The notes below the pieces were generated by a model. It worked only from the letters and a program-made list of their open reading frames with translations, was not told the origin of the DNA and ran no database searches. A stretch of 17,470 nt of DNA, taken from the NCBI GenBank assembly GCA_043822705.1, contig JBDRBK010000059.1, forward strand, positions 1 through 17,470, read 5' to 3'. This stretch comes from Fidelibacterota bacterium (lineage in GTDB: Bacteria > Fidelibacterota > Marinisomatia > Marinisomatales > TCS56). Made by a program: the position numbers and the translations under genes. Below are positions 2,458 to 17,384 of this stretch, piece after piece (the first letter of the stretch is position 1; each line of letters begins with the position of its first letter).

Positions 2458-4306
2458 GGCCGGCGTGCCCCGCACTGGTATTTCCCGGTTGCTTCAATTG
2501 ATTCATGACCGGATCGATTTGATCATGGGCGGTCTGGGCTTCGGCGATATTTGACCAGTGGGGTGCATGCTCGACCGCTTGTAGTAACTGTGGTTCCGCC
2601 TGTCGCCAACTGTGCAATTCCTCGTCGGATAGTCCGATAATATCGAACTTTTGCGCCATAAACCCAACGGCCGACAGCGCTTCCCGGGCACCGTTAAAAT
2701 CACTATTGCCAAGAGCCAATTTCGACATTGACAGGGCTTCATCAAGCGGTTCAAGTCGTTGCCGGAATCGGGGTTGCCCCTGAACTGGTACCGCAACACT
2801 CACGCCGTCATGTCCATGTGCGGCGGTACTGACCCCGCCAGCGGGATTCATCATGCTGGGCTTGGCGGCAATCTGCATGGCACTGTCGATCTTGAAATTG
2901 CCGTTGGTCACGACTTCCTCGCCTTCCTGAAGACCGGCCAAAACGATATAATATTCGCCGGCACGGGGACCAACGGTAATTTCACGACTGACGAAAGTCG
3001 GTTCGTCGCGGCCGGGAATCCTGATATATACCAGGGCGCGGCGGCCTGTTTTCAAGACGGCGGTGGCCGGCACTAATAGCGGCTGGGCGGCCGTGGCGGG
3101 ACGGTGTACAATACCAAGTTTTTCCGCCGGCACCAGGTCCATACCGCAGACATCGCACTGGCCGAACCCGTCCTTCACTACCTCCGGATGCATGGGGCAG
3201 ATCCATTTGCCGACCAGACTGGTGTTCACCGCCAGCCCGCGGGCATCCAGTTCGGCTTTGATGATTGCACGGATAAACAGGCCCGGTTTCAGTTTGCCGT
3301 CGGGATTGGCCAGGTTTATGCGCACCTTCACCGTACGGGTTTTGTTGTCCAGTACCGGATCGATGAAAGCCACCAGTCCGGCGAACACCTCGCCGGGCAA
3401 AGATTCGGTGGTGAATTCCACCTTCTGTCCGAACCGCAGCCAGGCCAAATCTTTTTCATAGGCGTCCAGCACGATCCAAATCCGGCTCAGATCGGCGATA
3501 GTATAGATCGGCGTGCCGGTATTGACATACATGCCCTCGATCGCGTTTTTGTGAATGACGACGCCGGAAATCGGACTGAAAATCGTCAGCCGGTCCTCGG
3601 GACTGCCGCGCTTTTCGATGGCGCCGATCTGCTGGGCGGTGAGTCCCAGCAGGGCCAGCTTTTCGCGGGCTGCGTCCAATGTCAGACGGGCCGATTCGCG
3701 GACCATTTCGGAACCGGCGGTTTCAGTCTGCTTCACGGACTGGATCAGTTCTTCCTGGGCGGCGTACAGCTCAGGGCTGTACAACTCCACCAGATGATCG
3801 CCGCGGGCAACACTGATGCCGGTGTAATCAACAAATAGATGCTCCAGCCGGCCCGGAACCCAGGCAGTGATTGATTTTACGCGGGTTTCGTCGTATTCGA
3901 CTTTGCCCGAAAGCAGAATATCCGCCGTGGCGACACCCCGCCTGACCGGCGTGGTGGCAATCTCGGCGATCCTGACAGCGGTTGCGGACAATTTCAGCTC
4001 ACCGGGACCTTCGGCGCTACCGCCGGTTCGCAGTGGAATCAAATCCATGAAACAGATCGGACACTGTCCTTTCGACGGCAGTTTGATCTGCGGGTGCATC
4101 GAGCAGGTCCACCATTCGATATTCCCGCTTGCCGACGCGGCTTCGGTGATGGTTGGATTGGTCGCTTCGGCCGCGCCGCCCCCTCGAATCAGCAATCCAG
4201 CTGCGAAAGCCAGCACCACGATGGCCCAGGCCAGGCGCGGTAACGCATTGATTTTAAGTCCGGTGGAATTCAATAAATTTTTCAGATTGAAACCGGTTGC
4301 GTTCAT
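2450..4306 (-). CDS. cusB: CusB-family RND periplasmic adaptor (membrane fusion protein) with two heavy-metal-binding CxMHP...CxxCxMDL domains and a His-rich tail
   Basis: 618-aa ORF with an N-terminal TM. Metal domains WTCSMHPQI...CPICFMDL and WICPMHPEV...CDVCGMDL. MFP core LYSPELYAAQEEL, IFSPISGVV, TIADLSRIW, KTRTVKVR, LKPGLF, GLQEGEEVVTNGNFKIDS. Lies between the OMF and cusA with overlapping start/stop codons on both sides. Confidence 0.94.
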   Translation of the reverse strand: MNATGFNLKNLLNSTGLKINALPRLAWAIVVLAFAAGLLIRGGGAAEATNPTITEAASASGNIEWWTCSMHPQIKLPSKGQCPICFMDLIPLRTGGSAEGPGELKLSATAVRIAEIATTPVRRGVATADILLSGKVEYDETRVKSITAWVPGRLEHLFVDYTGISVARGDHLVELYSPELYAAQEELIQSVKQTETAGSEMVRESARLTLDAAREKLALLGLTAQQIGAIEKRGSPEDRLTIFSPISGVVIHKNAIEGMYVNTGTPIYTIADLSRIWIVLDAYEKDLAWLRFGQKVEFTTESLPGEVFAGLVAFIDPVLDNKTRTVKVRINLANPDGKLKPGLFIRAIIKAELDARGLAVNTSLVGKWICPMHPEVVKDGFGQCDVCGMDLVPAEKLGIVHRPATAAQPLLVPATAVLKTGRRALVYIRIPGRDEPTFVSREITVGPRAGEYYIVLAGLQEGEEVVTNGNFKIDSAMQIAAKPSMMNPAGGVSTAAHGHDGVSVAVPVQGQPRFRQRLEPLDEALSMSKLALGNSDFNGAREALSAVGFMAQKFDIIGLSDEELHSWRQAEPQLLQAVEHAPHWSNIAEAQTAHDQIDPVMNQLKQPGNTSAGHAGHE

Positions 4307-5643
4307 AAGTCCCTCCCCGCCAGCAGTTCGAGTCTGGCTACTGCTTTTTGGCCGGCCACTAGCGATCGTTCATGCTCCAACAGAAATTGCAGATAGCGCC
4401 GCTGGGCGTCCACCAGGTTGAGAAAGTCAAGTTTATCGGCCACGTAGGCTTTTTCAGTGGCCCGCAGTGATTCCAGACTCTTGGGAATAAGTCCGTCTCC
4501 GTACAGAGCGATCTTGCGGCGGGCGTCCTCCAACTCGAACCAGGCCTGCTCCGCCTCGGCCCGTAACCGGTTTTCCAGGTCGATGTATCGTTCCTCGGTG
4601 GCGCGGTACTGGTAGCGGGCGGCGCTGACGGCGCTACGGTTTTTTTTGAACCACAGCGGCAGGCTGGCCGAAACCATTACCACCAAAGGGTCCTTGCCAC
4701 TGCCGGATGTACCGCTCATCAATTTTTCTCCGGTGACAATGTAATCCAGTCCCACGCCCAGATCGGGATAATAATTCAGGCGTGCCTTTTTTATATTATC
4801 CGCACTCGCCTGCCTGCTCAATTCGGCGATTCTGAATTCCGGGTTGCTTTCGAGAATAATCGCCACAATTTCCTCTTGGGACAATAATCGGCCGATGGCG
4901 TCAAGTGAATCCGGAACAATGATTTCAGTCAGATTTTTGTCGTTCAGCGCCAGCCGGAATTTTTCGATCAGCGGTGATTGCTGCGCTTCCAGAGTCTTCA
5001 GATTGTCTTCCAGTTTCAGCAGTTCAATCTGCGTGTTGATCAGATCGGGGTGGCCGGCGCGGGCGGTGGCGTATTTGCTCGTAACCACTTTCTCCCAGTT
5101 ACGCACCAGGGCGATATTCTGTTGCGTCAGGGTGATCGAGCGCTGCAGGAAATAATAATCCAGATAAATTTCGGTGACCCGGTATTTGAGCTGATAGACG
5201 GCGGTGTTGACTTGTTCTGCTGCGATCTCCGCAGTCCGGGTCTGCAGTTGCCCGGCCAGACGCAGTTTTCCGAACCATGGCAGCATCTGGTTCAGACTGA
5301 TTTTAAGTTCCTGTGGACCGACGGCGGTCTCGATATTTTCCAGGAAATAACCCAGACTGGCAGTCGGATTTGGCAGTCCGCGGGCCACGGCAATCGAATT
5401 GACTTCCGCCTGCCAACGAGCCCAGGCGCTTTTTACAGCGGGATTATTGTGTGCTGCCGTCGTTAGATAATCGGCCAGGGTGGGATGTTCGGCCAGCGGC
5501 GCTGCTGGACTGTCGGTAAACCCGGTCTGCACCTGGTCCGCGCGCCACTGGTGTTCGCCGTCGGCACCGTTGACGGGATTGATCAGAACCGCCAGGACCG
5601 GCAACAGCAGCCATTTAAATATTTCAATCGGTGGATTGGTCAA
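4303..5643 (-). CDS. TolC/CusC-type outer-membrane efflux factor (446 aa from TTG 5643)
   Basis: OEP-type motifs AAHNNPAVKSA, LNQMLPWFGK, ARLNYYPDL, SLPLWFKKN, DFLNLVDAQR. The ORF track starts at 5748. TTG at 5643 is preferred: it has AAGGAG 7 nt upstream and is followed by a signal-like segment (KWLLLPVLAVLINPVNG). The stop overlaps the cusB ATG (ATGA). Confidence 0.9.
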   Translation of the reverse strand: MTNPPIEIFKWLLLPVLAVLINPVNGADGEHQWRADQVQTGFTDSPAAPLAEHPTLADYLTTAAHNNPAVKSAWARWQAEVNSIAVARGLPNPTASLGYFLENIETAVGPQELKISLNQMLPWFGKLRLAGQLQTRTAEIAAEQVNTAVYQLKYRVTEIYLDYYFLQRSITLTQQNIALVRNWEKVVTSKYATARAGHPDLINTQIELLKLEDNLKTLEAQQSPLIEKFRLALNDKNLTEIIVPDSLDAIGRLLSQEEIVAIILESNPEFRIAELSRQASADNIKKARLNYYPDLGVGLDYIVTGEKLMSGTSGSGKDPLVVMVSASLPLWFKKNRSAVSAARYQYRATEERYIDLENRLRAEAEQAWFELEDARRKIALYGDGLIPKSLESLRATEKAYVADKLDFLNLVDAQRRYLQFLLEHERSLVAGQKAVARLELLAGRDL

Positions 5644-5761
5644 ATCAGAACTCCTTGTTTTGATTAATAATACAGACAAACCCCGCACTGTCTTTCCCGG
5701 ACAACCGGACGTACAAGCGGGAAGCGGGCGCATGGCCCGTGCAATCAAGGAGTATCTAGAT
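5644..5761 (-). promoter_or_regulatory. Structured intercistronic RNA: anti-SD arm pairing with the RBS of the OMF gene
   Basis: mRNA 5' arm ATC-T-AGA-T-ACTCCTTG (5761-5746, includes the TAG stop of the upstream ORF) is complementary to 3' arm CAAGGAGTTCTGAT (5657-5644, SD plus spacer). This is 8 perfect bp, extending to 14 bp with two 1-nt bulges. Inner hairpins: CGGGC/GCCCG, CCCGC/GCGGG and CCGG-TTGT-CCGG. Confidence 0.7.
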
Positions 5762-6112
5762 CAGTAGTGGCAGCGGGTGGGCCGGAGGCGGCTCCGGGTC
5801 AACAGCCGGATTCATTTCCGGTCGATGGGAAAGCTGTTCGGATAAACGGATAACTGGAAACAGTGCAACGGCAATGATAGTCTGCTCTATCCTCTGTTCC
5901 ACCTTATTTAACGGCGCGACCACCAGTGTCAATAAAACCGGTGTATTGCAGGCCGCCAGGCTCGATTCGCATGTCACTACATTTGCCGCCATGCAGCAGC
6001 TTAATTCAGTGCGGCAGCAGGGCATGTTGCAATTGTCGAATTGCACCAGCGACAGCACCGGCGAACTCAGCAACAGCAACGTGGTAATGATGGATGTTAT
6101 CCTGTTCAGCAT
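5756..6112 (-). CDS. Small exported Cys-rich protein with C-terminal polyproline; CutF/CruR(DUF2946)-like regulatory upstream ORF of the cus operon
   Basis: 118 aa with an N-terminal signal-like segment. Seven Cys in residues 28-55 (CNMPCC, SCCM). C-terminus DPEPPPAHPLPLLI. First gene after a terminator and directly upstream of a Cu efflux operon. The CDS is well supported; the function is inferred. Confidence 0.7.
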   Translation of the reverse strand: MLNRITSIITTLLLLSSPVLSLVQFDNCNMPCCRTELSCCMAANVVTCESSLAACNTPVLLTLVVAPLNKVEQRIEQTIIAVALFPVIRLSEQLSHRPEMNPAVDPEPPPAHPLPLLI

Positions 6113-6160
6113 TTATTCAATTAGTATAATGCAAACTTACAAAAGTTCCCTCATACATGA
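6113..6160 (-). promoter_or_regulatory. Candidate promoter region of the cus unit
   Basis: AT-rich gap between the terminator and ATG 6112. Minus-strand TATACT (-10-like) at 6128-6123 lies 10 nt before the ATG, and TAAGTTTG (matches the Bacteroidota -7 element TAnnTTTG) is at 6139-6132. No convincing -35/-33 element and no SD. Confidence 0.3.
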
Positions 6161-6178
6161 TATTTTGATTTTCCCGGT

Positions 6179-6217
6179 AAAAAGAAATCCCCCGACCCTG
6201 CGCAGACCGGGGGATTC
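6179..6217 (-). terminator. Rho-independent terminator downstream of the OmcE-like gene
   Basis: Minus strand GAATCCCCCGGTCTGCGCAGGGTCGGGGGATTTCTTTTT: 9-bp perfect stem AATCCCCCG/CGGGGGATT followed by a U-rich tract, 20 nt after the stop at 6238. Confidence 0.88.
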
Positions 6218-6237
6218 GAATGTTACTTGATCGACTG

Positions 6238-6846
6238 CTATTTATTGTGGCAAGTCAGGCAGAGAGCACTGGCATCGTTGGCCATAACCAGAAACGAACC
6301 GCTGCCGTTGTCATGTACATCGTGGCAGGAAGAACACTCCAATTTATGATCGGCCAGCAGGTCGGCGTCGATAGTGCTGCCGAGTCCGGAGTTAACCGTG
6401 GTCGGAGCATACAGCCCGCCATCACTGGTGGCCAGAGCATCATCGTAGGTAAATGAGATCGGGTGATCATCACTGATGCTGGTGCCGATTTCATTGGCAC
6501 TGCTGATGTCCGTAGTACCGGTCGTGACACTGCCGAAATTATCAACCGCCACCGTTCCATCGTGACAGCTAAGGCAGAGTTTCGAAGAGCCGCTGGGTTG
6601 CCCCATGCTGGCATCAACAGAGAATGAGCTGTACAGTGTGTAGGTGGAAGATGTAACCTGGTGATTCCACAGCGGAGCGCCGGTGACATTTGTATTGGCG
6701 TTATGTGGAGTATGGCAGACGATACAGATTTCACCGGACGAATTCCAGCTGCTGGCACTGAAGTCGTGGGCCGAGCCGGCTATTTGCCCAAACACCATTG
6801 TACTTGCTATTATCAGAACAGTTAAAACACCTAATAGTCGCGACAT
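6238..6846 (-). CDS. omcE: OmcE-like secreted tetraheme cytochrome c (candidate extracellular cytochrome nanowire subunit)
   Basis: 202 aa with a Sec signal and four CxxCH (CIVCH, CLSCH, CSSCH, CLTCH). Motif order AHDFS / ICIVCHTPHNA / PLWN / YTLYSS / LCLSCHDG / GTSISDDHPISF / LECSSCHDVHDN / FL..LCLTCHNK-stop. This is collinear with G. sulfurreducens OmcE as I recall it (KHDLS / ICVFCHTPHNA / PLWNR / FTLYSS / CMSCHDG / GTDLSNDHPVNF / LECGSCHKVHDN / LCLGCHKK). RBS-like AAAGGG 7 nt upstream. Confidence 0.9.
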   Translation of the reverse strand: MSRLLGVLTVLIIASTMVFGQIAGSAHDFSASSWNSSGEICIVCHTPHNANTNVTGAPLWNHQVTSSTYTLYSSFSVDASMGQPSGSSKLCLSCHDGTVAVDNFGSVTTGTTDISSANEIGTSISDDHPISFTYDDALATSDGGLYAPTTVNSGLGSTIDADLLADHKLECSSCHDVHDNGSGSFLVMANDASALCLTCHNK

Positions 6847-6891
6847 GTCGATACCCTTTAATTATCGTATTGAATATATCCAGTACCATAG

Positions 6892-6907
6892 TACAAGAAC
6901 TATACCA
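6892..6907 (-). promoter_or_regulatory. Candidate sigma54 (-24/-12) promoter for the OmcE-like gene
   Basis: Minus strand TGGTATAGTTCTTGTA versus consensus TGGCAC-N5-TTGCW. GG-N10 spacing is correct, but -12 is GT instead of GC. Lies 45 nt upstream of ATG 6846 and just downstream of a sigma54 activator gene. Confidence 0.55.
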
Positions 6908-7012
6908 CTCAAGGTAAAGTCAGCTAATTAGTTACTGATTTTCACGATTGTGGCCATGAGCCGACGGAGTCGGGACAGTAGTCTCCTGAAATTATCGGCT
7001 AAAACAGCGCTT

Positions 7013-7030
7013 ATTGATCATTTAATCAAT
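7013..7030. promoter_or_regulatory. Dyad ATTGAT-N6-ATCAAT, candidate activator/enhancer site
   Basis: Perfect 6-bp inverted repeat about 105-125 bp upstream of the candidate -24 element, a typical enhancer distance for sigma54 activators. Confidence 0.3.
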
Positions 7031-7039
7031 GCTGGTAGT

Positions 7040-7071
7040 GGATTATCCCCCAGAATACTGCGGAATAATCC
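7040..7071. repeat. Inverted repeat GGATTAT...ATAATCC just after the response-regulator stop (hairpin or operator)
   Basis: Minus strand GGATTATTCCGCAG-TATT-CTGGGGGATAATCC forms a ~13-bp stem with one mismatch. No U-tract follows, so it is not a canonical intrinsic terminator. Confidence 0.5.
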
Positions 7072-7075
7072 CCAA

Positions 7076-8449
7076 TCAAGTCAAATTGTATTTTTTCATT
7101 TTATATCTGATCTGGTCGCGGGTCAGGCCCAGCAGACGAGCGGCACGCGATTGATTATTGTTCTCGCGCTGGAGTGCCCAGGCTACAATTTCATTTTCAA
7201 TTTCCGACCAGGTTTTACCCTTGAAATATTCATCCAGGATCGCGTGATCAACCACCGGGGCTCCGTTGCGGAAATGATTTTGGATGTGTTGCGGCAGATG
7301 CCAGACCGAAATCCGCTCCGGTTTTTCCAGCAGGAAAATCCGTTCCAGAGTATTTTTCAATTCCCGGATATTCCCCGGCCAGTCATACCGGTTCAGCATA
7401 TCTTGGGCGGCCTTGTCGATTCCGGTCACGTGCAGATTCAATTCCGAATTGAAGCGCTCAATGAATTTGCTGGTCAAATCCGAAACATCCTCCAGGCGTT
7501 CGCGCAGCGGCGGAATCGTCAACGAAATCACATTCAGACGGAAATACAAATCTTCGCGAAACGTTCCCGATTCCATCTCCTGGCGCAAGTCGCGATTGGT
7601 CGATGCGATAATCCTGACATTGACCTTCAATTCACGTACGCCGCCGACCCGGTAAAAAGACTGGGTCTCGATAAAACGTAGCAATTTGGCCTGAAAACCG
7701 ATCGGGATTTCACCGATCTCGTCCAGGTAAACAGAACCGCCGTCGGCCAGCTCGATCTGACCATGCTTCCGCGCCTTGGCATCGGTAAAGGCGCCTTTTT
7801 CATAACCAAACAGTTCACTTTCCAGCAGGTGCTCCGACAGCGAGGCGCAATTGACGATCACGAATGGTTTGTTCTGACGCAGCCCGTGTTCATGAACCAG
7901 GCGTGCCAGCATATCTTTCCCGGTACCGGTCTCTCCCAGAAGCAGGATGGTACCGGTATCGGTCTGTCGTAATTTACGGATCGTGCTCATTACTTCGCGC
8001 ATCCGAGGGGAGTGACTGACATAACTTCCCAGGCGAATTTCCTGGTCGCCGCGATGCTCAAGGATGCTGATTTTCTGGCTTTTCTCCCGCTCCTTGAAGG
8101 CCATTTCGATCAAAACCGTAACTTCGTCGAAGTTGACCGGTTTGTTCAGGTAGCGAAATGCCCCCAGACGCATAGCCTCCACCGCCACCTTATCGGTACC
8201 ATAGGCGGTCATGAAAAAAAATACCGTTTCGTTCCGGATACCCTGCAATTCCCGCAGGATATCGATACCATTCATGTCCGGCAAACGAAAATCCACAAAT
8301 AATACGTCCGGCGGATCCTGCAGGGCATGCGTCACGCCCTGGCCGCCATATTCGGTGATTGTTATTTCAAACCCAATTTTCTTCAAGTGTTCCTGGAGCG
8401 ACCAGGACACCAATTTTTCATCCTCGATTATCAAGGCGCGCAGATTCAT
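7076..8449 (-). CDS. NtrC/AtoC-family sigma54-dependent response regulator (REC, AAA+, Fis-type HTH)
   Basis: 457 aa. REC (IIEDE, VDFRLPDMNG, MTAYG, LNKP), Walker A GETGTGKD, ESELFGYEKGAFTDA, Walker B YLDEIGE, FREDLYFRLNV, WPGNIRELKN, HTH NQSRAARLLGLTR. Confidence 0.97.
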   Translation of the reverse strand: MNLRALIIEDEKLVSWSLQEHLKKIGFEITITEYGGQGVTHALQDPPDVLFVDFRLPDMNGIDILRELQGIRNETVFFFMTAYGTDKVAVEAMRLGAFRYLNKPVNFDEVTVLIEMAFKEREKSQKISILEHRGDQEIRLGSYVSHSPRMREVMSTIRKLRQTDTGTILLLGETGTGKDMLARLVHEHGLRQNKPFVIVNCASLSEHLLESELFGYEKGAFTDAKARKHGQIELADGGSVYLDEIGEIPIGFQAKLLRFIETQSFYRVGGVRELKVNVRIIASTNRDLRQEMESGTFREDLYFRLNVISLTIPPLRERLEDVSDLTSKFIERFNSELNLHVTGIDKAAQDMLNRYDWPGNIRELKNTLERIFLLEKPERISVWHLPQHIQNHFRNGAPVVDHAILDEYFKGKTWSEIENEIVAWALQRENNNQSRAARLLGLTRDQIRYKMKKYNLT

Positions 8450-8450
8450 T

Positions 8451-9965
8451 TTAATTTTCCTTCAAAGGACGGATCGGCAGCTCCACCGTAAAACAGGTTG
8501 ACCATTTCCAGTCATTGCTGTCGACAAGAATTCGACCGCCGTGGCTTTCAACGATCGCGAGTGACAGTGACAAACCCAGGCCTGTTCCTTTATGTTTGGT
8601 AGTAAAAAATGGTTTGAATATCTGTTGGCGGTTTTCCGTCGGTATCCAGCTGCCAGTGTTCTTGAATGAGATACGCACGATATCTGCAACAGAGTCGAAT
8701 TCGGTACCGATATCGATCCGGGGATTACGTGTTCCGCTGGTCGCCTGATAAGCATTCAACAGCAAATTGACAAAGACCTGCTTGAGTTGCTCGGGATCGC
8801 CTTCGATGGTCAATCCGCCGGTCAGAAAATTCTCCCTCAACTCAATTCCATCGCTAGCAATCTGCTGCCGGTGCAGACTGATTATCTGGTCCAGCGTCTG
8901 TTCCAGGTCCAGAGCCCGAAAATGTGGTTTCGAAGGTTTGGCGAAATCCATCAAATCCTGGACCGTTTTCAGCACGCGGTCAGCCTGTGATACCATTTCG
9001 GCGACAATTACCTCCCATTGCTCATTAAAAATGTGATTCTGGCGGCCCTTGAAAATTTCCAGCGCATTCCTTATCCCGGAAACCGGGTTCTTGATCTCGT
9101 GCGCCACGCTGGCAGCCAGCTCACCGATGCTGGCCAGTTGTCCGGCGCGATTGATCTGCCGGTGATGCAATTCATCGATTTCTGACCGATTCTGTTCCAG
9201 CTTGGCGGTCATGTTATTGATGGCACCGGCTAATCGCGACAGTTCCCCGCGGGTTCGCAGATCGATTCGCGTCGACAGATCCCCCGCTTCGATCCGCGCG
9301 ATCCCGGCCTGAATCCGGTATAACGGTTTTTGAAATACCTGCTGATGCAGCAGGCTGATTACCAGCGTTATCAATATCAGGAACAGGGAGTAAACCGCAA
9401 AATCCAATTTCAGAAATGTGGCCTGCGTACCGGCGCCGACCGCATTGGTCAGATCGATCGCCAGGTATCCCAGATGCGTCTGCACGGCTTCGTGACAGGC
9501 ATGGCAGTCGGGCTCGTTGACGATGCTGGTAAGCATGCGGATATCGGCGGACGATTCGGCCGGTAATCTGAAAATCCTGTGATCACTAACCGGGATACCA
9601 GCATCTATCATCTCCCGGTTGTCGATCAATTGGCCCAATTCCGTATTATCGTTACTGAATTTGATAACCTGATTCCCATCCAGCACGCGGATATGCCGAA
9701 TCTCCTCGGACACTTTGATATCCGCCAGCAGCGACTGGCAATGCCGGGCCGAATGATTGCGCATATCATGACGAATCTGGGCATCGATCAGGGACTCCAA
9801 TGGTTTTAACAGCTCCAGCCGGTATTCACGAAACATGTCGCCACGGATTTTATAAACCGCCAGCATGGCACCACTGCCGGCAATAAATACCGAAAACAGA
9901 ACCATCACGATCAGTTTATCGCGCCAGCGCAATTTTCTCAGCAGGGGTATCCCGGCAATTTTCAT
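8451..9965 (-). CDS. Membrane sensor histidine kinase with periplasmic heme c-binding domain, HAMP, HisKA and HATPase
   Basis: 504 aa. Two TMs flank a periplasmic domain containing IVNEPDCHACH. HAMP (GDLSTRI..GELSRLAGAINNM), H-box VAHEIKNPV, N-box QVFVNLLLNA, FKPFFTTK, GTGLGLS. Confidence 0.95.
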   Translation of the reverse strand: MKIAGIPLLRKLRWRDKLIVMVLFSVFIAGSGAMLAVYKIRGDMFREYRLELLKPLESLIDAQIRHDMRNHSARHCQSLLADIKVSEEIRHIRVLDGNQVIKFSNDNTELGQLIDNREMIDAGIPVSDHRIFRLPAESSADIRMLTSIVNEPDCHACHEAVQTHLGYLAIDLTNAVGAGTQATFLKLDFAVYSLFLILITLVISLLHQQVFQKPLYRIQAGIARIEAGDLSTRIDLRTRGELSRLAGAINNMTAKLEQNRSEIDELHHRQINRAGQLASIGELAASVAHEIKNPVSGIRNALEIFKGRQNHIFNEQWEVIVAEMVSQADRVLKTVQDLMDFAKPSKPHFRALDLEQTLDQIISLHRQQIASDGIELRENFLTGGLTIEGDPEQLKQVFVNLLLNAYQATSGTRNPRIDIGTEFDSVADIVRISFKNTGSWIPTENRQQIFKPFFTTKHKGTGLGLSLSLAIVESHGGRILVDSNDWKWSTCFTVELPIRPLKEN

Positions 9966-9969
9966 CTAA

Positions 9970-10929
9970 TCAGGGCAGAAATGTCGGCGCCAGTTTACTG
10001 GCGGCCTGTTCGGAAGATTGACGGTATTCCCGGGCGGCTTCTTCAGTCCGGCCCAGTGCTTCCATAATGCGCCCCCGCCAGTAATGAATCCGGTACATTT
10101 CCGGCAGGGCGTGTATGCCGTACAAATATTTTTCCGCCACTTCGATTTCGCCCCGGTTGAAGGCAATCAGACCCAGCCCCAGTTGGCCGTACTGGGCGCC
10201 GTTTGGATCGTCCAACAGATGCTGAAAAATCTCCTCGGCGGCACTGAAATCTTCCAGTTTGAGATAAATGAAACCCTTTAAAACCTGGCCTTTCACCGAC
10301 AGTGAATCCAATCCATCGAGCTGCCCCAGGGCCAGTTGGTAGCGAAAACGATAATATAATTTCCGGGCCAGCGATTCCTTGCGCAGGCGTTGTTTTTCAG
10401 CGGCTGCAAAAGCTACTTCCACTTCCGGGGGAAATAATTCCGGGAAAAATACCGCCAGCTCGGAATTCAACCCGCTGGCCGTCGCCGGCGTATAGCCGGG
10501 TAGATAACTGGCCAGACGACGGTCCGGCCCCAGCACAAAGATTGTCGGCAGGACCCGGACCCCGAATGTGTCGTACCAATGGTGGTCCGGATCGCCGATC
10601 CGATACCAGGCAGCGGCACGGTCCGTCTTAGCCGACGATCCGGTGACCACCTGGATAATGAAAATCCGATCGCGCAACGGTTTGGTCAGGACCGCTTTCA
10701 GGTCGCCTTCGATCCGGTCTGATAAACGCTGGTCGGCGCGGGTAAACACCAGCAGCAGGACGGCGTCGGGGGCCGGTGACTTGACAGCGTCGCTCAACAG
10801 TGACTGCAACAGGGTATCCGGAAGCGCCTCCCCGATACTCCAGACCCGGCCGGCGGTCGCCTTATCCTGAGCCCCTGCCAGTCCGCCGACGATCAGCAAG
10901 ACCAGCAGCAGTCTGATTCTAGCGGACAT
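9970..10929 (-). CDS. Exported thioredoxin-like-fold (no CxxC) plus TPR protein (319 aa from ATG 10929)
   Basis: The ORF track starts at 11130, inside the upstream cytochrome gene. ATG 10929 overlaps that gene's stop and gives a clean signal peptide (MSARIRLLLVLLIVGGLAGA-QD). The N-half is redoxin-like (IGEALPD, LLLVF, FGVRVLPTIFVLGPD). The C-half has TPR-like repeats (KGFIYLKLEDFSAAEEIF, LGLIAFNRGEIEVA, YWRGRIMEALGRTEEA). Confidence 0.75.
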   Translation of the reverse strand: MSARIRLLLVLLIVGGLAGAQDKATAGRVWSIGEALPDTLLQSLLSDAVKSPAPDAVLLLVFTRADQRLSDRIEGDLKAVLTKPLRDRIFIIQVVTGSSAKTDRAAAWYRIGDPDHHWYDTFGVRVLPTIFVLGPDRRLASYLPGYTPATASGLNSELAVFFPELFPPEVEVAFAAAEKQRLRKESLARKLYYRFRYQLALGQLDGLDSLSVKGQVLKGFIYLKLEDFSAAEEIFQHLLDDPNGAQYGQLGLGLIAFNRGEIEVAEKYLYGIHALPEMYRIHYWRGRIMEALGRTEEAAREYRQSSEQAASKLAPTFLP

Positions 10930-12214
10930 ATTCTTCGTATTTGTGGCACCCCGGCAGACAGGTGCCACCGTTGCTGGTGGCTTTGAAATTAATCGGTAAT
11001 TCCCAACTGCCGAAAGGCACTGCTGTCCGAATATGGTAAGGCTGGTTCGAGGCGTGCGTCTCATGACAGGCACGGCAGGTCCGGCCCTTGGTCCGGTTGA
11101 CATGCAGGAAATGCATGTTGTTCTGGCCATCGCGGAAATTGGTCATGGTGGTCGTCAGCGGGTCCTGCAGGTTTTCCGGTGGGTGACATTCGATACACAA
11201 CTGGTACTTCTCGAAATCGAATTCGCTGTAGAATTCCTTGGGATAATAATGCCGCAACAGCCGAAAATTGCCGGAACCGTGCGGTTCGTGGCAGCCGCTG
11301 CAGTCGCGGTCCTTGATCGGCCCGTGCCAGTTCTTGCTGCCTTTCAGCAGTTCATCGATCCCGGGGACCGCTATCTTGCCCCGCTTGACCGCCTGATCGT
11401 GACAACTCAGGCAGAGATCGAACGAATTGGATCTCAGGTTCCAACTGAAATTCGAACCGTGTGAATTGTGGCAGTTGTAGCAGGATAACTGGTCCTCGAC
11501 GGCTTCATGATGCGAATCGGCGCCGGCGATGATTCCCTGAATGTTGCCATGACATTCGAAACAGAGTTCCGGTGTGGTGGAAAGCAATTGAAACCGGTAA
11601 GCGCTGCTGTGGGGATCGTGGCAGCCGGAACAGGATTCGGCCACCGGCGCGTGAATATTGGCCAGCGCATTGATTTCCTCCTTTTTCATTTCATGGCAAT
11701 CATAACAGGCGGCGTTGACGCCATCGAATTTGAGCAGCCCCTGCCCCAGTTTTCCATGACTGGAATGGCAGACATCGCAGGCTCCCACGGCCACCGGTCC
11801 ATGGATGTATTTGTCCCCGGTCCCACCGGTATCGTGGCACTGATTACAGACTTCCCCGGCGGTCGCTCCTTTCAACATATCGGCCTGATCGCCCTGATGC
11901 GGATCGTGGCAGGCGGTACATTCGCCTTCGGCCACCGGCGGATGCTGATCGGCCTCGTCCAGGGGAGCATCGTGGCAGCCGGTACACAATTCGGCCACGG
12001 TACCGGCCAGGACCATTTCACTGCCTTTGCCGCCCGGATGTTTCTTCTTATCCTGCACGTGACAGACTCCGCAATCGCGCTCCTCTACCGGCAGGTGGGT
12101 TACTTTTTTCTGGAATAATTCCGCGTGGCAGCCGCCGGTTACGCAGTCCTGGGACCACAAACCGGCACTGAAAAAAATCAGCAGGACCGCCAGTCGCTGG
12201 GCAGTTTTATGCAT
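10919..12214 (-). CDS. Periplasmic multiheme cytochrome c with doubled-CxxCH repeats; 13 CxxCH + CX4CH + CX3CH (15 hemes possible), 431 aa
   Basis: Start moved from 12274 to ATG 12214 (GGGGA upstream, signal MHKTAQRLAVLLIFFSAGLWS-QD). Repeating unit HxPVxxGxCxxCHxxH...LCxxCH. Motifs counted by hand. Confidence 0.93.
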   Translation of the reverse strand: MHKTAQRLAVLLIFFSAGLWSQDCVTGGCHAELFQKKVTHLPVEERDCGVCHVQDKKKHPGGKGSEMVLAGTVAELCTGCHDAPLDEADQHPPVAEGECTACHDPHQGDQADMLKGATAGEVCNQCHDTGGTGDKYIHGPVAVGACDVCHSSHGKLGQGLLKFDGVNAACYDCHEMKKEEINALANIHAPVAESCSGCHDPHSSAYRFQLLSTTPELCFECHGNIQGIIAGADSHHEAVEDQLSCYNCHNSHGSNFSWNLRSNSFDLCLSCHDQAVKRGKIAVPGIDELLKGSKNWHGPIKDRDCSGCHEPHGSGNFRLLRHYYPKEFYSEFDFEKYQLCIECHPPENLQDPLTTTMTNFRDGQNNMHFLHVNRTKGRTCRACHETHASNQPYHIRTAVPFGSWELPINFKATSNGGTCLPGCHKYEEYVR

Positions 12215-12240
12215 TGGTTTCCCCGTAATTGAATTAAGCA

Positions 12241-13872
12241 CTAATGGATTTCTCCGTGACAGGTCAGGTAACATCTTAATTTTCTTGGATTGGCATCATC
12301 GAATAGGATCTGGCCGCCGCTACCGGCAGTGACATAATCCGGATTGAAATTTATCAACCGGGAATTATTGTATGATCCGTGGGGATCATGACAAGTCGTG
12401 CAACTGGTCTGGTTAGTCTCAACATGCAGCCGGTGCCGGATAAAACTCTGGTTCCCCAAAATACTGTTCCGGTCATGGCACCGATAGCACAATTCATAAA
12501 TCGTGGCGCTCTCAATATTATAGTCGTCAAATACCATCTGGCCCGCCAGCAGCGGTGCATAGTTGGAACCGTGAGGGCCGGCCGGTCCGGTGCCGACTCC
12601 GGCCTCGTCATTGCCATGACAATCACTACAGTAGATCAGGGAGTTCTCGGTGTAGGGTGTGATAAGGCTGGGACAACTGGAATTTTTTCCGGCCCCGAAA
12701 ACCGGATGGTAGGACGGATTGGTTTCGGCATATTCCAGACGGATACTGTTCTGGGCATCGACGCGCGCTACGTAAGTCGGAATCGACGGGATTACCGTGG
12801 CGTGACATTTCAGGCACACCTCATATTCATAAGTGACCGTAGTAACGGTGTTGCCGTTTTTATCGATACCGCCGACACCGGTCAAACACCCGGGGACATC
12901 CGGCGGCGTGGCGACGGTGGAATTGGCCTGGTGCGGGGCGTGGCAATCGCTGCATTCGACATGCAGCGACATGGTGGCCGGATCCTCACCCGGCAGGTGA
13001 ATCGAATTATAATCCGCCACCGGATGAGTCGATGATTTCAGCAGGGTCGCCTGGACATTTTTCGCGGCCACATTTCCGTTGTGGCAGACCAGGCAATTAT
13101 CCTCTTCGGCACTGGATTTCAACAGCCAGTAGGTGCTGGAGGCGCCGTGGGAAGTATGACAGTTATTACAACCGTTGGCCGCAACCGTGGTCCAGTCTGT
13201 ATACGGCCAGGGGTCGGGCAATGAACTGTTCCAGGTGGCGCTGGAAGTGTTGTGAATAGCGGCGCTCCAGCCGGTCTGAACGTGACATTGCAGACAGATG
13301 CCGCCATTGAGCGGGTCGACTTTTAGGAAGTGACCGTAGGTGTTATCATGGGCGTCGTGGCAGGAAGTGCATTCCAGGTTGCTGGTGGTGCCGGACTGGC
13401 TGTCATGACAACCGGTACAGGTATATCCGTCGGGATGGGTATCGATATTCAGGGGATGGTCGTCACCCAGATCATCGGAAAGGTTGCTGCGGTAGGTGAC
13501 AGGAATCTTATCGAAACCGACCGGGAAGGCGATCGGGTCGACCCGGTTCAGGACCGATCCCAGGGCGACTGTCCCGTCGTGGCAACTGAGACAGAGCCGG
13601 GATGTCGTCAGCGGCTGCTGGGTGCTGGCATCCATGGAAGGGCTGCCATACAATGTATAAGTAGCTGTGTTGTCGGAACGGTTCCACAACGGCGCCGTGG
13701 CCGAGCTGTTATGGGTGGTGTGGCAGAAAATACAGATACCGGTCTCGCTGGTGGCCTTGATCGCACCGGTTCCCAGCACCGACAGATTGTGTTTGGATGT
13801 AGCGATACTGCCCTGCCCCCAGAGCAGGGTCGCCGTTCCCAGGGCCAGCAGTCCGGTAATAATTCTATTCAT
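12241..13872 (-). CDS. Secreted multiheme cytochrome c with N-terminal OmcE-like module; 12 CxxCH + C-terminal CX3CH (13 hemes possible)
   Basis: 543 aa, signal peptide ending LLWG-Q. Motifs CIFCH, CLSCH, CTGCH, CTSCH, CLQCH, CNNCH, CLVCH, CSDCH, CLKCH, CSDCH, CYRCH, CTTCH, CYLTCH. The first ~195 aa align by eye with the 202-aa tetraheme. Confidence 0.93.
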   Translation of the reverse strand: MNRIITGLLALGTATLLWGQGSIATSKHNLSVLGTGAIKATSETGICIFCHTTHNSSATAPLWNRSDNTATYTLYGSPSMDASTQQPLTTSRLCLSCHDGTVALGSVLNRVDPIAFPVGFDKIPVTYRSNLSDDLGDDHPLNIDTHPDGYTCTGCHDSQSGTTSNLECTSCHDAHDNTYGHFLKVDPLNGGICLQCHVQTGWSAAIHNTSSATWNSSLPDPWPYTDWTTVAANGCNNCHTSHGASSTYWLLKSSAEEDNCLVCHNGNVAAKNVQATLLKSSTHPVADYNSIHLPGEDPATMSLHVECSDCHAPHQANSTVATPPDVPGCLTGVGGIDKNGNTVTTVTYEYEVCLKCHATVIPSIPTYVARVDAQNSIRLEYAETNPSYHPVFGAGKNSSCPSLITPYTENSLIYCSDCHGNDEAGVGTGPAGPHGSNYAPLLAGQMVFDDYNIESATIYELCYRCHDRNSILGNQSFIRHRLHVETNQTSCTTCHDPHGSYNNSRLINFNPDYVTAGSGGQILFDDANPRKLRCYLTCHGEIH

Positions 13873-14833
13873 ATAATTTCCGGAAAACCTGGATTCGGTT
13901 GTTCATCGTATCGGACACATAAATCAGGTCGCCATCGATGGCGATATCGGTTGGCATGTAAAACTGTCCCTGACCGCTGCCGGTGGCGCCGAAATGCATC
14001 AGGAAACTTCCGTCCGCAGCAAAAATCTGCACATTATCAAAACTGTTGTCGACAACATACAAACGCCGGGCTCCATCCACGGCCACCCCCTTGGGACGAT
14101 TTAACTGTCCGCCGCTCACGCCGGCAGCGCCGATGGTTGCCAGCCAGGTGCCAGCGGGACTGAAATTCTGGACCCGGAAATTCATGGTGTCGGAAATATA
14201 GATCGACCCGTCCGCTCCGACGGTGACAAAAGTCGGGTAATTCAGTGAACCCGCCGCCTGACCGCGGCCGCTGATCAGCCGCTTAACGACGCCGTTCGCC
14301 TGCCGGCGCAACACCTGGTGCCCCGGCGTATCGACCAGATACAGACCGCTGCCGGAACCGGCAATCCCGGTAAGCCGCTGGGCGTCGGCCGACAGATCGA
14401 GCCGGCCCCGATAATCACCGCCATAATCGAACACGAATGGATTTTGCGCCAGCGACGAGGTAACGAAAATCCGGTCTTCACTCAGACAGACATCCAGCGG
14501 CGCGAACAGGTGACTGACACCCGCCGCCGGCTCCAGGAAGACGGTGGTGCCGGCTTGCAGATTAATCAGGAACACACCCCCGGCACCGGGATCAGCAACT
14601 GCCAGATAGCCGTCACGAGCATCCACTCCCATCGGGCGCGCGAACTCACTCCTGACCGGCGGCCGGATCAGGTTCGTCAGGCGCTGCCACCAGTTCCGGT
14701 CGGCGTTAATCGCCGGCGGCTCAGCCAACACACGCTCGAGGACGATCCGCGTCGTATCCGGTGGGCGCGGCCAGAGCACCTGCTGGGCAGCTACCAGGTT
14801 GACCAGGATACAGCCGATCAGCGCGATCATCAT
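13865..14833 (-). CDS. Exported NHL-repeat beta-propeller protein (about 322 aa)
   Basis: NHL repeats LNYPTFVTVGADGSIYISDTMNFRVQNF, LNRPKGVAVDGARRLYVVDNSFDNVQIF, FYMPTDIAIDGDLIYVSDTMNNRIQVF; N-terminal LWPRPPDTTRI. Start placed at the ATGA overlap with the barrel gene stop (14833). ATG 14860 is an alternative; 14962 from the ORF track is unlikely. Confidence 0.9.
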   Translation of the reverse strand: MMIALIGCILVNLVAAQQVLWPRPPDTTRIVLERVLAEPPAINADRNWWQRLTNLIRPPVRSEFARPMGVDARDGYLAVADPGAGGVFLINLQAGTTVFLEPAAGVSHLFAPLDVCLSEDRIFVTSSLAQNPFVFDYGGDYRGRLDLSADAQRLTGIAGSGSGLYLVDTPGHQVLRRQANGVVKRLISGRGQAAGSLNYPTFVTVGADGSIYISDTMNFRVQNFSPAGTWLATIGAAGVSGGQLNRPKGVAVDGARRLYVVDNSFDNVQIFAADGSFLMHFGATGSGQGQFYMPTDIAIDGDLIYVSDTMNNRIQVFRKLYE

Positions 14834-16785
14834 GGTCTGATATCGATGCTCAGCGACCATCGTGAATCCTGTTCCTTTTCCCGGAAAAATTTTCGTTCGG
14901 AATATTCGTACTGCAAATTCGCCGTCAGTTTGCGAACTTCGTAGCGAACCGTTCCCTGCCATTTCTGCTCGCGCAGATCGTTCATCGAACCACGGATTTC
15001 CCGCTGCCCCCAGGATACCTGGGCCTTCAGATTGCGCGATAACCGCCGAAAATATTCCATGACAATCCGGTTGAATTCCTGGGAATCATCCCGCAGTGGT
15101 AATTCCTGAACACCAACCTGAACTTGGGCCATCAGATACTGGCTCAGATATGAGCCCAGGATACCGTTCAGCGACAGCGTGGTGTTGGTATAGGGGGTGA
15201 TCCGCGAATCGGAAGACTCGCGCGTCAGCTCCAGCATGAGCGGATTATAATCGAGTTTGAGAAACCAGTTGTGGTCCCGCCGTTCATCGTATGAATAGAA
15301 CGAGACCGGACTCACCCCGGAATAATTGATCGAATTGCCCTTATAACCGGCAATCAGTCCCCAAAAAGATTGATACTGGTAGGTCACACCGTAACTCAGA
15401 TTGTCATAGGCGGTCGTTTCGGTCCGTTCGCCGGTGTAAACGAAACGCACCAGAATATCGACCGAGTCGGGAATGGCGCTGACCGGCGTACGCTGAATTT
15501 CGACCGTTGTCCCGACTTCATAGATATTATAGTCAAACTCATTCAGATAATTGATCAGCCCCGTAAGATCGCTGATTTCCACCGTTCCCGGGACTACGCC
15601 GCTGACCGGCAGCAGCAGCGACACCGATTCGCTGAAATTATGGGTGATCTCACCACGCCGGGTGACTCCCTGGTCGCTGTTGATTTCAGTCCAGTGCGGT
15701 TTGTACTCCAGATTGGCCGACAAGCGGCCGGCCGGCAGTTTTTTAGTATACTCCCAACCCAACCGGTATTCCAGATCGCGTTTCCGGTAGGCATCCTCCT
15801 GATAGAATTCCCAGTTGATACCTGCCGTGGAGGTCAGGCTTAGGTATAGCTGATGTTGAAGATTGGAATTCAGGCGGTGGGTCTGCGCCACCGTGCCGCT
15901 GTTCAGATAATACTGGTAATTGTACTGGGCGGTACTGCGCAGATTACGTCCCAGCTCCTGCTGAATACGGTTGTTCCAGGTGATGCTGGTAACGGTGTCG
16001 GTTCCGACGATATTATTTCCATACAGCGAGGCCTGATAGCTATTGCGCCGGTTGGCGCCCAGCGGCAGCGAAAAGCCCGATTGAACGGTGGTGTTTTCGA
16101 TCTGTATGTCGTACAGGCCGATTTCCCGGCGGTGTATTTGCGAATGGTTTGCACGGACATTGCCTCTGAAAGATTCCAGTCCGCCCCAGGCCCCGGACAG
16201 GGAGTAACGTTCTTCGTCGACCAGAACCTGCCGGCTGCCGAAATATTCTTCGCGCTGGTCGGTGGTGTAGCCAAAACTGAGTGGCAATCGGCGGTTGCGC
16301 CAGGTCGCGTTAAGATTGGCACGCCGTGTCAGGTCTTCCGAATCCTGGAAAAAATCATTGTTCAACTGACGGTATTTGCGCAAATAGCCCAGGCTCATAC
16401 TCAGCGGTTTTTTGCTGAACAGGACACTCTGAAAAGTAACATTGCGGAAAAATCCCCGGTCGGTTGATTGCGACTGCTGCGGACCGGCCCAGGAAAACAG
16501 GTTCTGATTCAGACCGGCATCCAATGCCAGGGAATACACCATTAGATTGGGATGATAAATACTGCCGTCGCCGCCGATTTCTAGTACTTCCCTGAGTGCC
16601 TGCCGACGGGAGCGGCCGTTATAGGAGGCATCCTCGATCCGGCGCAGCTTGGATTGGAAATCGCCCGTAAAATGCAGTTCGTAATCGGTAATCCGGTACT
16701 GGAATAATTTGACCATCGGGAGCTGCTGGGCCGTCAATAGACAGGGTGCAACCGCCGCTATAATATAAAACCGCCAACTGCTCAT
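14830..16785 (-). CDS. Putative large outer-membrane beta-barrel (porin of a porin-cytochrome conduit), 651 aa
   Basis: Start at the ATGA overlap 16785 gives signal MSSWRFYIIAAVAPCLLTA-QQ. The mature chain has no long hydrophobic helix, is Tyr/Asn/Gln/Ser/Arg-rich and shows many alternating amphipathic strands (LRSTAQYNYQYY, LTSTAGINWEFY, YRLGWEYTK, LTANLQYEYSER). Flanked by multiheme cytochrome genes. Confidence 0.8.
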   Translation of the reverse strand: MSSWRFYIIAAVAPCLLTAQQLPMVKLFQYRITDYELHFTGDFQSKLRRIEDASYNGRSRRQALREVLEIGGDGSIYHPNLMVYSLALDAGLNQNLFSWAGPQQSQSTDRGFFRNVTFQSVLFSKKPLSMSLGYLRKYRQLNNDFFQDSEDLTRRANLNATWRNRRLPLSFGYTTDQREEYFGSRQVLVDEERYSLSGAWGGLESFRGNVRANHSQIHRREIGLYDIQIENTTVQSGFSLPLGANRRNSYQASLYGNNIVGTDTVTSITWNNRIQQELGRNLRSTAQYNYQYYLNSGTVAQTHRLNSNLQHQLYLSLTSTAGINWEFYQEDAYRKRDLEYRLGWEYTKKLPAGRLSANLEYKPHWTEINSDQGVTRRGEITHNFSESVSLLLPVSGVVPGTVEISDLTGLINYLNEFDYNIYEVGTTVEIQRTPVSAIPDSVDILVRFVYTGERTETTAYDNLSYGVTYQYQSFWGLIAGYKGNSINYSGVSPVSFYSYDERRDHNWFLKLDYNPLMLELTRESSDSRITPYTNTTLSLNGILGSYLSQYLMAQVQVGVQELPLRDDSQEFNRIVMEYFRRLSRNLKAQVSWGQREIRGSMNDLREQKWQGTVRYEVRKLTANLQYEYSERKFFREKEQDSRWSLSIDIRP

Positions 16786-17384
16786 CCTGAACCGCCGCCC
16801 TCCCGCGGCAGAAATTGGCTGCGATCGGAGAAATGGGGCGAATGACACTCGATGCAGACCCGATTCTCGTTAAGAACATGGGCGGCTACCCGTTCACGAT
16901 CGATTTTTTCGTGGCAGAATGTACAGATTTTATCTCCGCTCCTGGTCAGCAGTTTTTTGCCGCGCGACCGATGGGGATCATGGCAGGCCAGACACTGCCC
17001 CACCGCTACCGGACCGTGGATATAGGCATAAGGTCGGGCAAACTGTTCGTGGCAGGTGCGACAGACAAAATCGGTCCTGGCCGCCAGCAGACTTTGTCCG
17101 GACTGATCCTGATGGCATTTATTGCAGTTGCGGCCCTTATACGGTTCATGCAGGAACCAGGTGACCTGGGTGCGGTTGGTCCGCGCGAAGCCGGGGGTTA
17201 CTCCGGTTAATGGCACGATTGGAACTGTCCGGGTGGTGTCAGCCTGCTGGGCAACAACCAGGGACGGCGGCAGCGGGACGCCGTCAAAAAAAAACGACAG
17301 AACCCGATAAGTAGTTTCGTCCCGGCAAGCGGATAAACACAAAACCACCGACAGGCCCAACAACGAACGACAGGTAAAAATCAT
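16782..17384 (-). CDS. Pentaheme cytochrome c lipoprotein
   Basis: 200 aa. Lipobox LSAC, then VLSFFFDGVP and a Pro/Thr-rich linker. Five CxxCH (CNKCH, CRTCH, CLACH, CTFCH, CIECH) in doubled-CxxCH arrangement. Confidence 0.92.
   Translation of the reverse strand: MIFTCRSLLGLSVVLCLSACRDETTYRVLSFFFDGVPLPPSLVVAQQADTTRTVPIVPLTGVTPGFARTNRTQVTWFLHEPYKGRNCNKCHQDQSGQSLLAARTDFVCRTCHEQFARPYAYIHGPVAVGQCLACHDPHRSRGKKLLTRSGDKICTFCHEKIDRERVAAHVLNENRVCIECHSPHFSDRSQFLPREGGGSG

Follow-up and report, generated by a model that had tools for sequence, protein, structure and literature searches.

Here we describe a small tetrahaem c-type cytochrome, called E below, and the genes around it in a Fidelibacterota bacterium (Marinisomatia; Marinisomatales; TCS56). 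The window analysed is the whole 17,470-base contig JBDRBK010000059.1 (C59), one of the 218 contigs of a 3.34-Mb genome bin (GCA_043822705.1) with an estimated contamination of 6%. All of its genes lie on the minus strand, in the order pentahaem cytochrome (c200), large outer-membrane beta-barrel, NHL-repeat beta-propeller, 12-13-haem cytochrome (c543), a further multihaem cytochrome (c451), secreted TPR protein, sensor histidine kinase, sigma-54-dependent activator and, beyond a gap of 229 nucleotides (nt), E itself. Past E come a terminator hairpin, a small Cys-rich open reading frame (ORF) and a resistance-nodulation-division (RND) efflux operon (coordinates in Table 1). By sequence, ligand set and chain ends E belongs to the family of the filament cytochrome OmcE, and by gene content, where compositions were compared, the locus fits an omcE-type cluster. 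As a single gene E is ordinary, one member of a very large branch with uniform size, motifs and neighbours. We propose, with a probability of about 0.65, that E is a secreted subunit induced through sigma-54, which would stack head to tail via His27 on an outer-membrane module of cytochromes and barrel.

The original prediction proposed the likeness to OmcE and named the lack of a significant alignment as refuting it; the likeness proves to be a real homology over the full length. In a phmmer search of all PDB chains the best match is 9yuq_N (E-value 1.5e-24, residues 2-202 of E against 2-218 of the chain), from the Desulfuromonas soudanensis WTL filament of DSOUD_2954 (PMC13712944). It is joined by 7tfs_A (E-value 1.2e-23, residues 7-202 against 10-232), which is Geobacter sulfurreducens OmcE (PMC12954529). 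Four PDB sequences were returned for E, and the two other than the OmcE chains score at E-values of about 1. A profile of 61 family members matches 7TFS at 3.1e-37 and 9YUQ at 1.9e-34. The six-haem filament cytochrome OmcS was not matched in the PDB searches with E, the family profile and c543, which gave only the two OmcE chains as significant.

The CxxCH motifs of E start at residues 41, 91, 171 and 196, and in the alignments His27, His48, His128 and His178 each face a His in 7TFS and 9YUQ; all eight axial-ligand positions of OmcE are retained. The four distal candidates named from the letters (in AHDFS, TPH, DDHP and DVH) are therefore those of the solved filaments, and the last haem does lie two residues from the C-terminus (CLTCH-NK-stop), the chain ends of 7TFS, 9YUQ and E coinciding at this point. 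The motif PLWN is also common to the three. In the published filament work, the His beside N134-A137 coordinates an internal haem (PMC13712944). The earlier statement that these His residues suffice for all haems holds for the eight ligand positions; it describes the polymer and not the monomer, because one haem of the OmcE filament is ligated by a His of the next subunit (PMC9473688, PMC13712944). E has ten His in total, including His62 and His167, both of which had been overlooked; His167 shows no conservation. The predicted mature chain (residues 21-202) is rich in Ser, Thr and Asp and nearly free of Lys and Arg, as had been noted (30 Ser, 18 Thr and 16 Asp, together 35%; three Lys, no Arg; 19 Asp and Glu). 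AlphaFold2 (AF2) places a helix at residues 2-19, in the signal peptide region, and Q21, I22 and G24 probably belong to the mature chain because they are at least 90% conserved in an alignment of 61 sequences hand-picked from the 120 listed relatives.

These 120 best relatives (P0001-P0120) are 59-70% identical to E and 193-243 amino acids (aa) long, the closest homologues scoring at E-values of 1e-83 or better. All 120 have exactly four CxxCH motifs, end no more than three residues past the last one and carry WNH after PLW. The compactness named in the original prediction is thus the norm of the branch and no special minimal form. An exhaustive search of 1.84 billion cluster representatives gave 5121 relatives at an E-value of 0.001 or below, 3429 at 1e-10 or below and 458 at 1e-30 or below, and a word-indexed search gave at least 7323 at 0.001 or below among 8000 candidates scored. 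Among contigs from one genome per species, at least 616 stretches match the pattern and at least 545 encode a relative of E. For neighbourhood comparisons 79 related loci were retained, many of them truncated at contig ends; their titles name Calditrichota, Melioribacteraceae, Ignavibacteria, many Bacteroidota, Chlorobiota, Gemmatimonadota and KSB1, and further Omnitrophota, Sumerlaeota, Opitutales, several Proteobacteria, Desulfobacterota and others. One of these loci has the title of an Ignavibacterium album MAG, and for one close relative of E the source is given as Caldithrix abyssi.

Together with the window, these loci supply 103 standalone modules, and 56 fused heads come from c543-type proteins. 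The standalone modules keep His27 in 100 of 103 cases, His48 in 93, and His128 and His178 in all 103. In the 61-sequence alignment nine His are invariant, namely the four of the haem motifs, the four distal ones and His62. Many related clusters (e.g. L003, L040, L052, L049 and L060) hold two to four standalone paralogues, 30-56% identical to E of the window and lying in tandem or after c451; the present genome has a single standalone E.

How one subunit might meet the next is suggested by natural tandem fusions of E modules, found in four (P0241, P0242, P0243 and P0248) of the best 149 of the 5121 representatives. At six fusion junctions the distance from the His of the last CxxCH to the His of the following arm is 8, 8, 8, 9, 9 and 17 residues. 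In E the tail NK (two residues) and the QIAGSA before His27 (six) add up to 8, matching the fusion spacers, a sum that depends on a cleavage site predicted by eye, seven residues ahead of His27. The spacers also share the pattern I/L-x-G-S/T-x-H-D with the arm of E. Because the junction spacers match, the modules appear to have been fused repeatedly in the geometry expected if the N-terminal arm starts at the end of the previous subunit. The simplest reading of these sequences is that an OmcE-type C-terminal haem needs a His arm from whatever follows it, which agrees with the unsatisfied haem of OmcE that requires the His of the next subunit (PMC13712944). Since the fusions and c543 supply this arm in cis, a free-standing E could receive it only from another chain, and from the fusion spacers and the arm copy in c543 we infer that the donated ligand is His27. 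A two-copy prediction of residues 21-202, with four of the eight haems supplied, was also made (score 0.26, mark 0.42).

Metagenomic proteins of 459-1400 aa (P0241, P0242, P0243, P0246 and P0248) contain two to five stretches resembling the E module in one chain and resemble covalent 'mini-wires'. PKD domains, a common feature of surface proteins, occur in two of the five multi-module relatives scanned (P0242 and P0246), and a Sortilin/BNR-like region in one; these domains hint at a surface location for the multi-module relatives.

The second place where the arm is found in cis is c543. Its head matches 7TFS at an E-value of 2.6e-30, is 46% identical to E and has one extra CxxCH. In 54 of 55 c543 orthologues a His stands exactly 10 residues past the His of the last CxxCH of the head, the exception being a 740-aa protein of locus L061, and 52 of the 55 carry the full arm motif H-x2-S/T-x3-W/Y-N/S/T after the head. 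The same motif marks the N-terminus of 65 of the 103 standalone modules and has only 140 occurrences across the 309 multihaem ORFs examined. The motif after the head resembles the N-terminal arm of a next subunit, copied into c543 itself. A FastTree phylogeny built from 159 modules groups the 56 fused heads into a single clade (support 0.999) that excludes every standalone module; owing to this separation we take E and c543 to be old and distinct partners, not recent duplicates. A search for Geobacter-type OmcE with the c543 head returned 2677 relatives, none of them named Geobacter. The remainder of c543 was also considered as a series of degenerate E modules. This was rejected: the match is weak and confined to the generic paired-CxxCH part of the profile, which c200 and c451 match too.

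Since the interfacial haem of c543 is closed in cis while its N-arm His is free, the only binding site left to the protein would be an open haem exposed at one end of an E stack, and a stack capped in this way would extend its haem chain into the further ~eight haems of c543. According to the available text of Petersen et al. (PMC13712944), for a tip protein, 'Currently, no such candidate...', and their one anchor candidate is encoded outside the OmcE gene cluster. That the 202-aa 'WNH' branch forms filaments which c543 caps or seeds as an end-piece, be it anchor or tip, is a tentative suggestion from these sequence features, and we consider it possible but doubtful.

The ninth invariant His, His62, is a mark of the branch and bears on whether E could be self-sufficient. 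It is His in 91 of 103 standalone modules, whereas the c543-type heads have Arg (41 of 56) or Lys (9 of 56) at this position; Arg is also found in the head of the window's c543 and in both solved OmcE subunits. Because the position exchanges His with Arg or Lys, His62 is most simply taken as a haem-propionate partner and not as an axial ligand. Nine His with four haems in an OmcE-like protein could, as discussed by Petersen et al. (PMC13712944), close the protein's own open haem and let it act as an anchor. If the branch does form filaments that c543 caps or seeds, His62 might serve as a temporary ligand of the open haem until subunits assemble.

The surroundings of E agree with those described for OmcE. 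Besides OmcE, the minimal omcE cluster holds a large beta-barrel and a pair each of multihaem cytochromes and beta-propeller lipoproteins, and nanowire-competent OmcE genes were selected by the presence of a large beta-barrel and a beta-propeller lipoprotein (Petersen et al., PMC13712944). In the window a large barrel lies near the omcE-type gene, c200 and c451 provide the two multihaem cytochromes, with c543 as a third, and the NHL protein provides one propeller. A second NHL lipoprotein is encoded on another contig of the genome, C172 (3730 bases, positions 1-3730), directly upstream of a copy of c200; this contig is a near-copy of the barrel start and c200 (~90% similar by eye), also encodes a 325-aa protein without a family, and may be either a strain variant or a duplication. 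For the barrel protein itself no Pfam or NCBIfam family was found. Its AF2 model (predicted local distance difference test, pLDDT, 85.7) has ~30 long antiparallel strands, and Foldseek against the PDB returned outer-membrane barrels only, with a best TM-score of 0.43 (MtrB, 6r2q_B).

By tblastn, the 79 related loci contain NHL in 75 cases (74 at 50% coverage or more), c451 in 59 (49), c200 in 53 (all 53), barrel in 49 (36), activator in 26 (20) and kinase in 18 (16), and c543 in 55 at the same coverage. The TPR protein, the small ORF and the three efflux genes each had tblastn matches in none of the 79. The usual order in these loci is NHL-c543-(kinase-activator)-E-NHL-c200-barrel-c451, often followed by more E paralogues; the window has the same parts permuted, with E last.

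E is monocistronic, with a putative inducible sigma-54 promoter of its own that probably answers to a haem-based periplasmic sensor. The original prediction gave the gene its own promoter region, and an element does stand before E, of the sigma-54 type and not the housekeeping one: no sigma-70-like promoter was found on the minus strand in the 229-nt gap (6847-7075). Alone the element is weak, as TGGYAY-N5-TTGY matches once in the window where 0.28 matches are expected and at least one match occurs in 51 of 200 shuffles. Its strength comes from comparison across loci. In 18 of the 79 loci E is immediately preceded, in the same orientation, by an orthologue of the activator, and among the 19 activator-adjacent E genes (these 18 and the window) the strict motif is found 40-110 nt before the ATG in 9, against 2 of 59 others (Fisher 2e-5); the looser GGYAY-N5-6-TTG is found in 16 of 19 against 1 of 59 (Fisher 9e-13). 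Sigma-54 (rpoN) is encoded in the genome, and the adjacent response regulator is the likely activator of E.

The kinase next to it has a single CxxCH (CHACH, residues 154-158, nt 9492-9506), located in the segment that precedes the HAMP domain. Of 17 full-length orthologues adjoining OmcE-like genes, 16 have a CxxCH within residues 142-168, the one without it being a 1155-aa kinase of a different type; the protein probably senses redox state or a gas through a haem in the periplasm. Downstream of E, the hairpin and T run of the supposed strong terminator are present. The word 'strong' is a matter of judgement, since the fold of the 96-nt terminator region is ordinary against shuffles (z -0.76); in positions 5700-7300 there are two terminator-like sites where 1.4 are expected. 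In a search of sequencing runs with positions 5700-9000, no RNA run matched, and DNA runs share at most 0.12 of the words.

Table 1. Coordinates of E, its sequence elements and the neighbouring genes in the window
Feature	Position	Strand	Remarks
c200, pentahaem cytochrome	16782..17384	minus	five CxxCH; lipobox LSAC
Large outer-membrane beta-barrel	14830..16848	minus	likely start 16785, 651 aa (long form 672)
NHL-repeat beta-propeller	13865..14962	minus	Pfam NHL, E-value 3.2e-20; lipobox-like LIGC after an internal Met
c543, 12-13-haem cytochrome	12241..13872	minus	543 aa; OmcE-like head in the first ~200 aa, with five CxxCH
c451, multihaem cytochrome	10919..12274	minus	13 CxxCH and two variant motifs; barrel partner
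Secreted TPR protein	9970..10929	minus	between c451 and kinase; long ORF form has a weak thioredoxin-like match
Sensor histidine kinase	8451..9965	minus	HAMP, HisKA, HATPase_c
Sigma-54-dependent response regulator	7076..8449	minus	receiver, Sigma54_activat (Pfam E-value 1.3e-64), HTH_8
Sigma-54-type -24/-12 element	6893-6907	minus	TGGTAT-N5-TTGT; 61 nt upstream of the ATG of E
Ribosome-binding stretch	6854..6859	minus	AAAGGG, purine-rich; 7 nt before the ATG
E, OmcE-family tetrahaem cytochrome, coding sequence	6238..6846	minus	ATG start, 202 aa, stop included
E signal peptide, residues 1-20	6787..6846	minus	predicted Sec type; cleavage before Q21 placed by eye
E His27, N-terminal arm (AHDFS)	6766..6768	minus	candidate ligand for the haem of the preceding subunit
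E haem motif 1, C41-H45	6712..6726	minus	CIVCH; next His is H48
E His48 (TPH)	6703-6705	minus	aligned with a His of 7TFS and 9YUQ
E His62 (PLWNH)	6661..6663	minus	ninth His; branch-specific
E haem motif 2, C91-H95	6562..6576	minus	CLSCH; from sequence and alignment
E His128 (DDHP)	6463..6465	minus	putative distal ligand of internal haem; faces the NDHP His of 9YUQ and 7TFS
E haem motif 3, C171-H175	6322..6336	minus	CSSCH; next His is H178
E His178 (DVH)	6313-6315	minus	aligned with a His of 7TFS and 9YUQ
E haem motif 4, C196-H200	6247..6261	minus	CLTCH; two residues from the C-terminus
Intrinsic-terminator-like hairpin	6217-6185	minus	14 pairs, 7 of them G-C, and a T run; 21 nt past the stop of E
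118-aa ORF	5756-6112	minus	Cys-rich, signal-peptide-like start; between the E terminator and the efflux operon; no Pfam or NCBIfam family found
RND efflux operon, heavy-metal type	1-5748	minus	OEP, CusB-like adaptor (two heavy-metal-binding domains), ACR_tran pump cut by the contig end

These elements can be assembled into the following scheme. After removal of the signal peptide, the 182-residue chain would bind four c-type haems, three of them with bis-His ligation completed within the subunit. The arm QIAGSA-His27-DFS would reach the preceding subunit and give its C-terminal haem the sixth ligand, and head-to-tail stacking of this kind would yield one continuous chain of haems. The outer-membrane module of the same contig would hold the resulting wire or feed it; this module consists of the lipoprotein pentahaem cytochrome, the ~30-strand barrel, the 13-haem cytochrome, the NHL propeller lipoproteins and c543. 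To judge from the conserved synteny and the promoter comparison, E would be driven by its own sigma-54 promoter and switched on by the adjacent activator, which in turn would answer to the membrane sensor kinase, whose periplasmic domain carries a c-type haem motif.

A periplasmic monomer using His62 is the main rival. In that case E would be a soluble tetrahaem shuttle carrying electrons from the inner membrane to the conduit, with its open haem closed by His62 and no polymer formed. Nine conserved His for four haems would allow this, E is a small acidic protein whose signal peptide, read by eye, is ordinary and lacks a lipobox, the cluster already has a complete barrel and two cytochromes able to span the membrane, and many of the at least 545 species come from lineages not known for mineral respiration. 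We nevertheless regard such a shuttle as unlikely: the Arg or Lys that replaces His62 in the solved OmcE subunits and the c543 heads makes the role of propionate partner the simpler one, His27 stays near-invariant although a self-sufficient monomer would not need an arm, and the fusions and the arm copy in c543 preserve a geometry between modules. The exchange of arms might serve only to dock E onto the c543 head or the conduit, one to one or in short stacks, giving a discrete complex and no micrometre-long wire, and this agrees with the joint presence of E and c543 in 55 of 79 loci, with the two clean, ancient clades formed by E and the c543 heads (0.999) and with the free N-arm His and cis-capped interfacial haem of c543. 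Yet a donor arm and an acceptor end are both present in E, as an open-ended polymer needs, natural fusions reach five module-like stretches per chain, and both solved homologues are long filaments (PMC13712944, PMC9473688), so that docking alone seems to us distinctly improbable.

A further alternative concerns the direction of flow. The system may run inward, with Fe(II), cathodes or partner cells as the electron source. This direction has been proposed for the Uet system of Tenderiales, whose make-up is similar (UetA tetrahaem, UetC barrel, UetH and UetI NHL proteins, UetJ undecahaem; 10.1101/2022.05.06.490989); lineages of Fe(II) and sulfur oxidisers, Thiobacillaceae and Acidiferrobacterales, are among the related loci. 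Direction cannot be read from sequences, however, and the likeness of UetA to E is one of description only. We hold uptake to be an improbable use of the system, and it is in any case a matter of physiology that is compatible with a filament. Returning to the head-to-tail stack, several points weigh against it. The invariant His62 suggests that a monomer of E could satisfy all four haems alone, which fits a non-propagating anchor (PMC13712944). The AF2 model of E from a 61-row alignment (mean pLDDT 48.6, predicted template-modelling score 0.39) is too poor for a fold comparison; haem-packed coil proteins often model poorly when folded without haem. The second propeller is seen only on the ~90%-similar variant contig, E comes last in the cluster, beyond the regulators, where most related loci have it at the head, and the eight-residue match of tail and arm moves with the cleavage site. 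With the DSOUD_2954/omcE cluster (PMC13712944) the locus shares the same minimal composition, a likeness of composition only.

To our knowledge, solved structures of cytochrome filaments come from no more than a handful of organisms. The branch of E is far larger than the published survey of five phyla, is very uniform and has the same types of accessory genes; if it polymerises, conductive protein wires would be common in bacteria of sediment and groundwater beyond the classical metal reducers. The fusion spacer, the arm copy in c543, the ninth His and the switch formed by haem kinase and sigma-54 offer leads on how the subunits of such wires connect, how a wire ends and how its expression is turned on. 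In the available text of the survey, likely OmcE nanowires are placed in Thermodesulfobacteriota, Pseudomonadota, Aquificota, Campylobacterota and Nitrospirota (PMC13712944), whereas the relatives of E are mostly titled Calditrichota, Bacteroidota, Ignavibacteria-type, Chlorobiota, Gemmatimonadota, KSB1 and others. A literature search covering main texts found no description of OmcE-type filaments, or of the 202-aa branch, in Calditrichota, Bacteroidota or Ignavibacteria.

Among known systems, the published omcE cluster differs from the locus of E in gene order and in having no counterpart of the extra 12-13-haem cytochrome with its OmcE-like head. The Uet cluster of 'Candidatus Tenderia electrophaga' (10.1101/2022.05.06.490989) brings together a tetrahaem cytochrome, a barrel, two NHL proteins and an undecahaem cytochrome, as here, and its authors, who propose it for electron uptake, also discuss conductive polymers as a possibility; in its gene list as published there are further triheme c7 cytochromes, a cupredoxin and a peptidyl-prolyl isomerase, none of which is seen at the locus of E. 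The Pcc and Mtr conduits likewise set a lipoprotein cytochrome, a large barrel and a many-haem cytochrome in a row, and homologues of Geobacter-like pcc porins are reported in Ignavibacterium, Melioribacter and Caldithrix (PMC6137239). The barrel of E's locus is set apart from them by its ~30 predicted strands and lack of a Pfam or NCBIfam family, and neither an OmcE-like subunit nor propellers are part of classical Pcc or Mtr.

As to the filaments themselves, OmcS of G. sulfurreducens forms an insulated haem chain in which each subunit draws on its neighbour for the second His ligand of one haem (PMC9473688), with six haems as against four in E. OmcE of the same organism (7TFS), which has been seen as a filament while E is known here from its sequence, is the closer likeness in the order of the four CxxCH motifs, the N-terminal HD arm and PLWN. 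Its filament has a rise of 34 A (PMC12954529). OmcE is longer than E (232 aa against 202 aa), with the gaps lying between conserved haem motifs, and has Arg after PLWN where E has His. Finally, in E, unlike in G. sulfurreducens OmcE, a control module of sigma-54 activator and haem kinase adjoins the gene.

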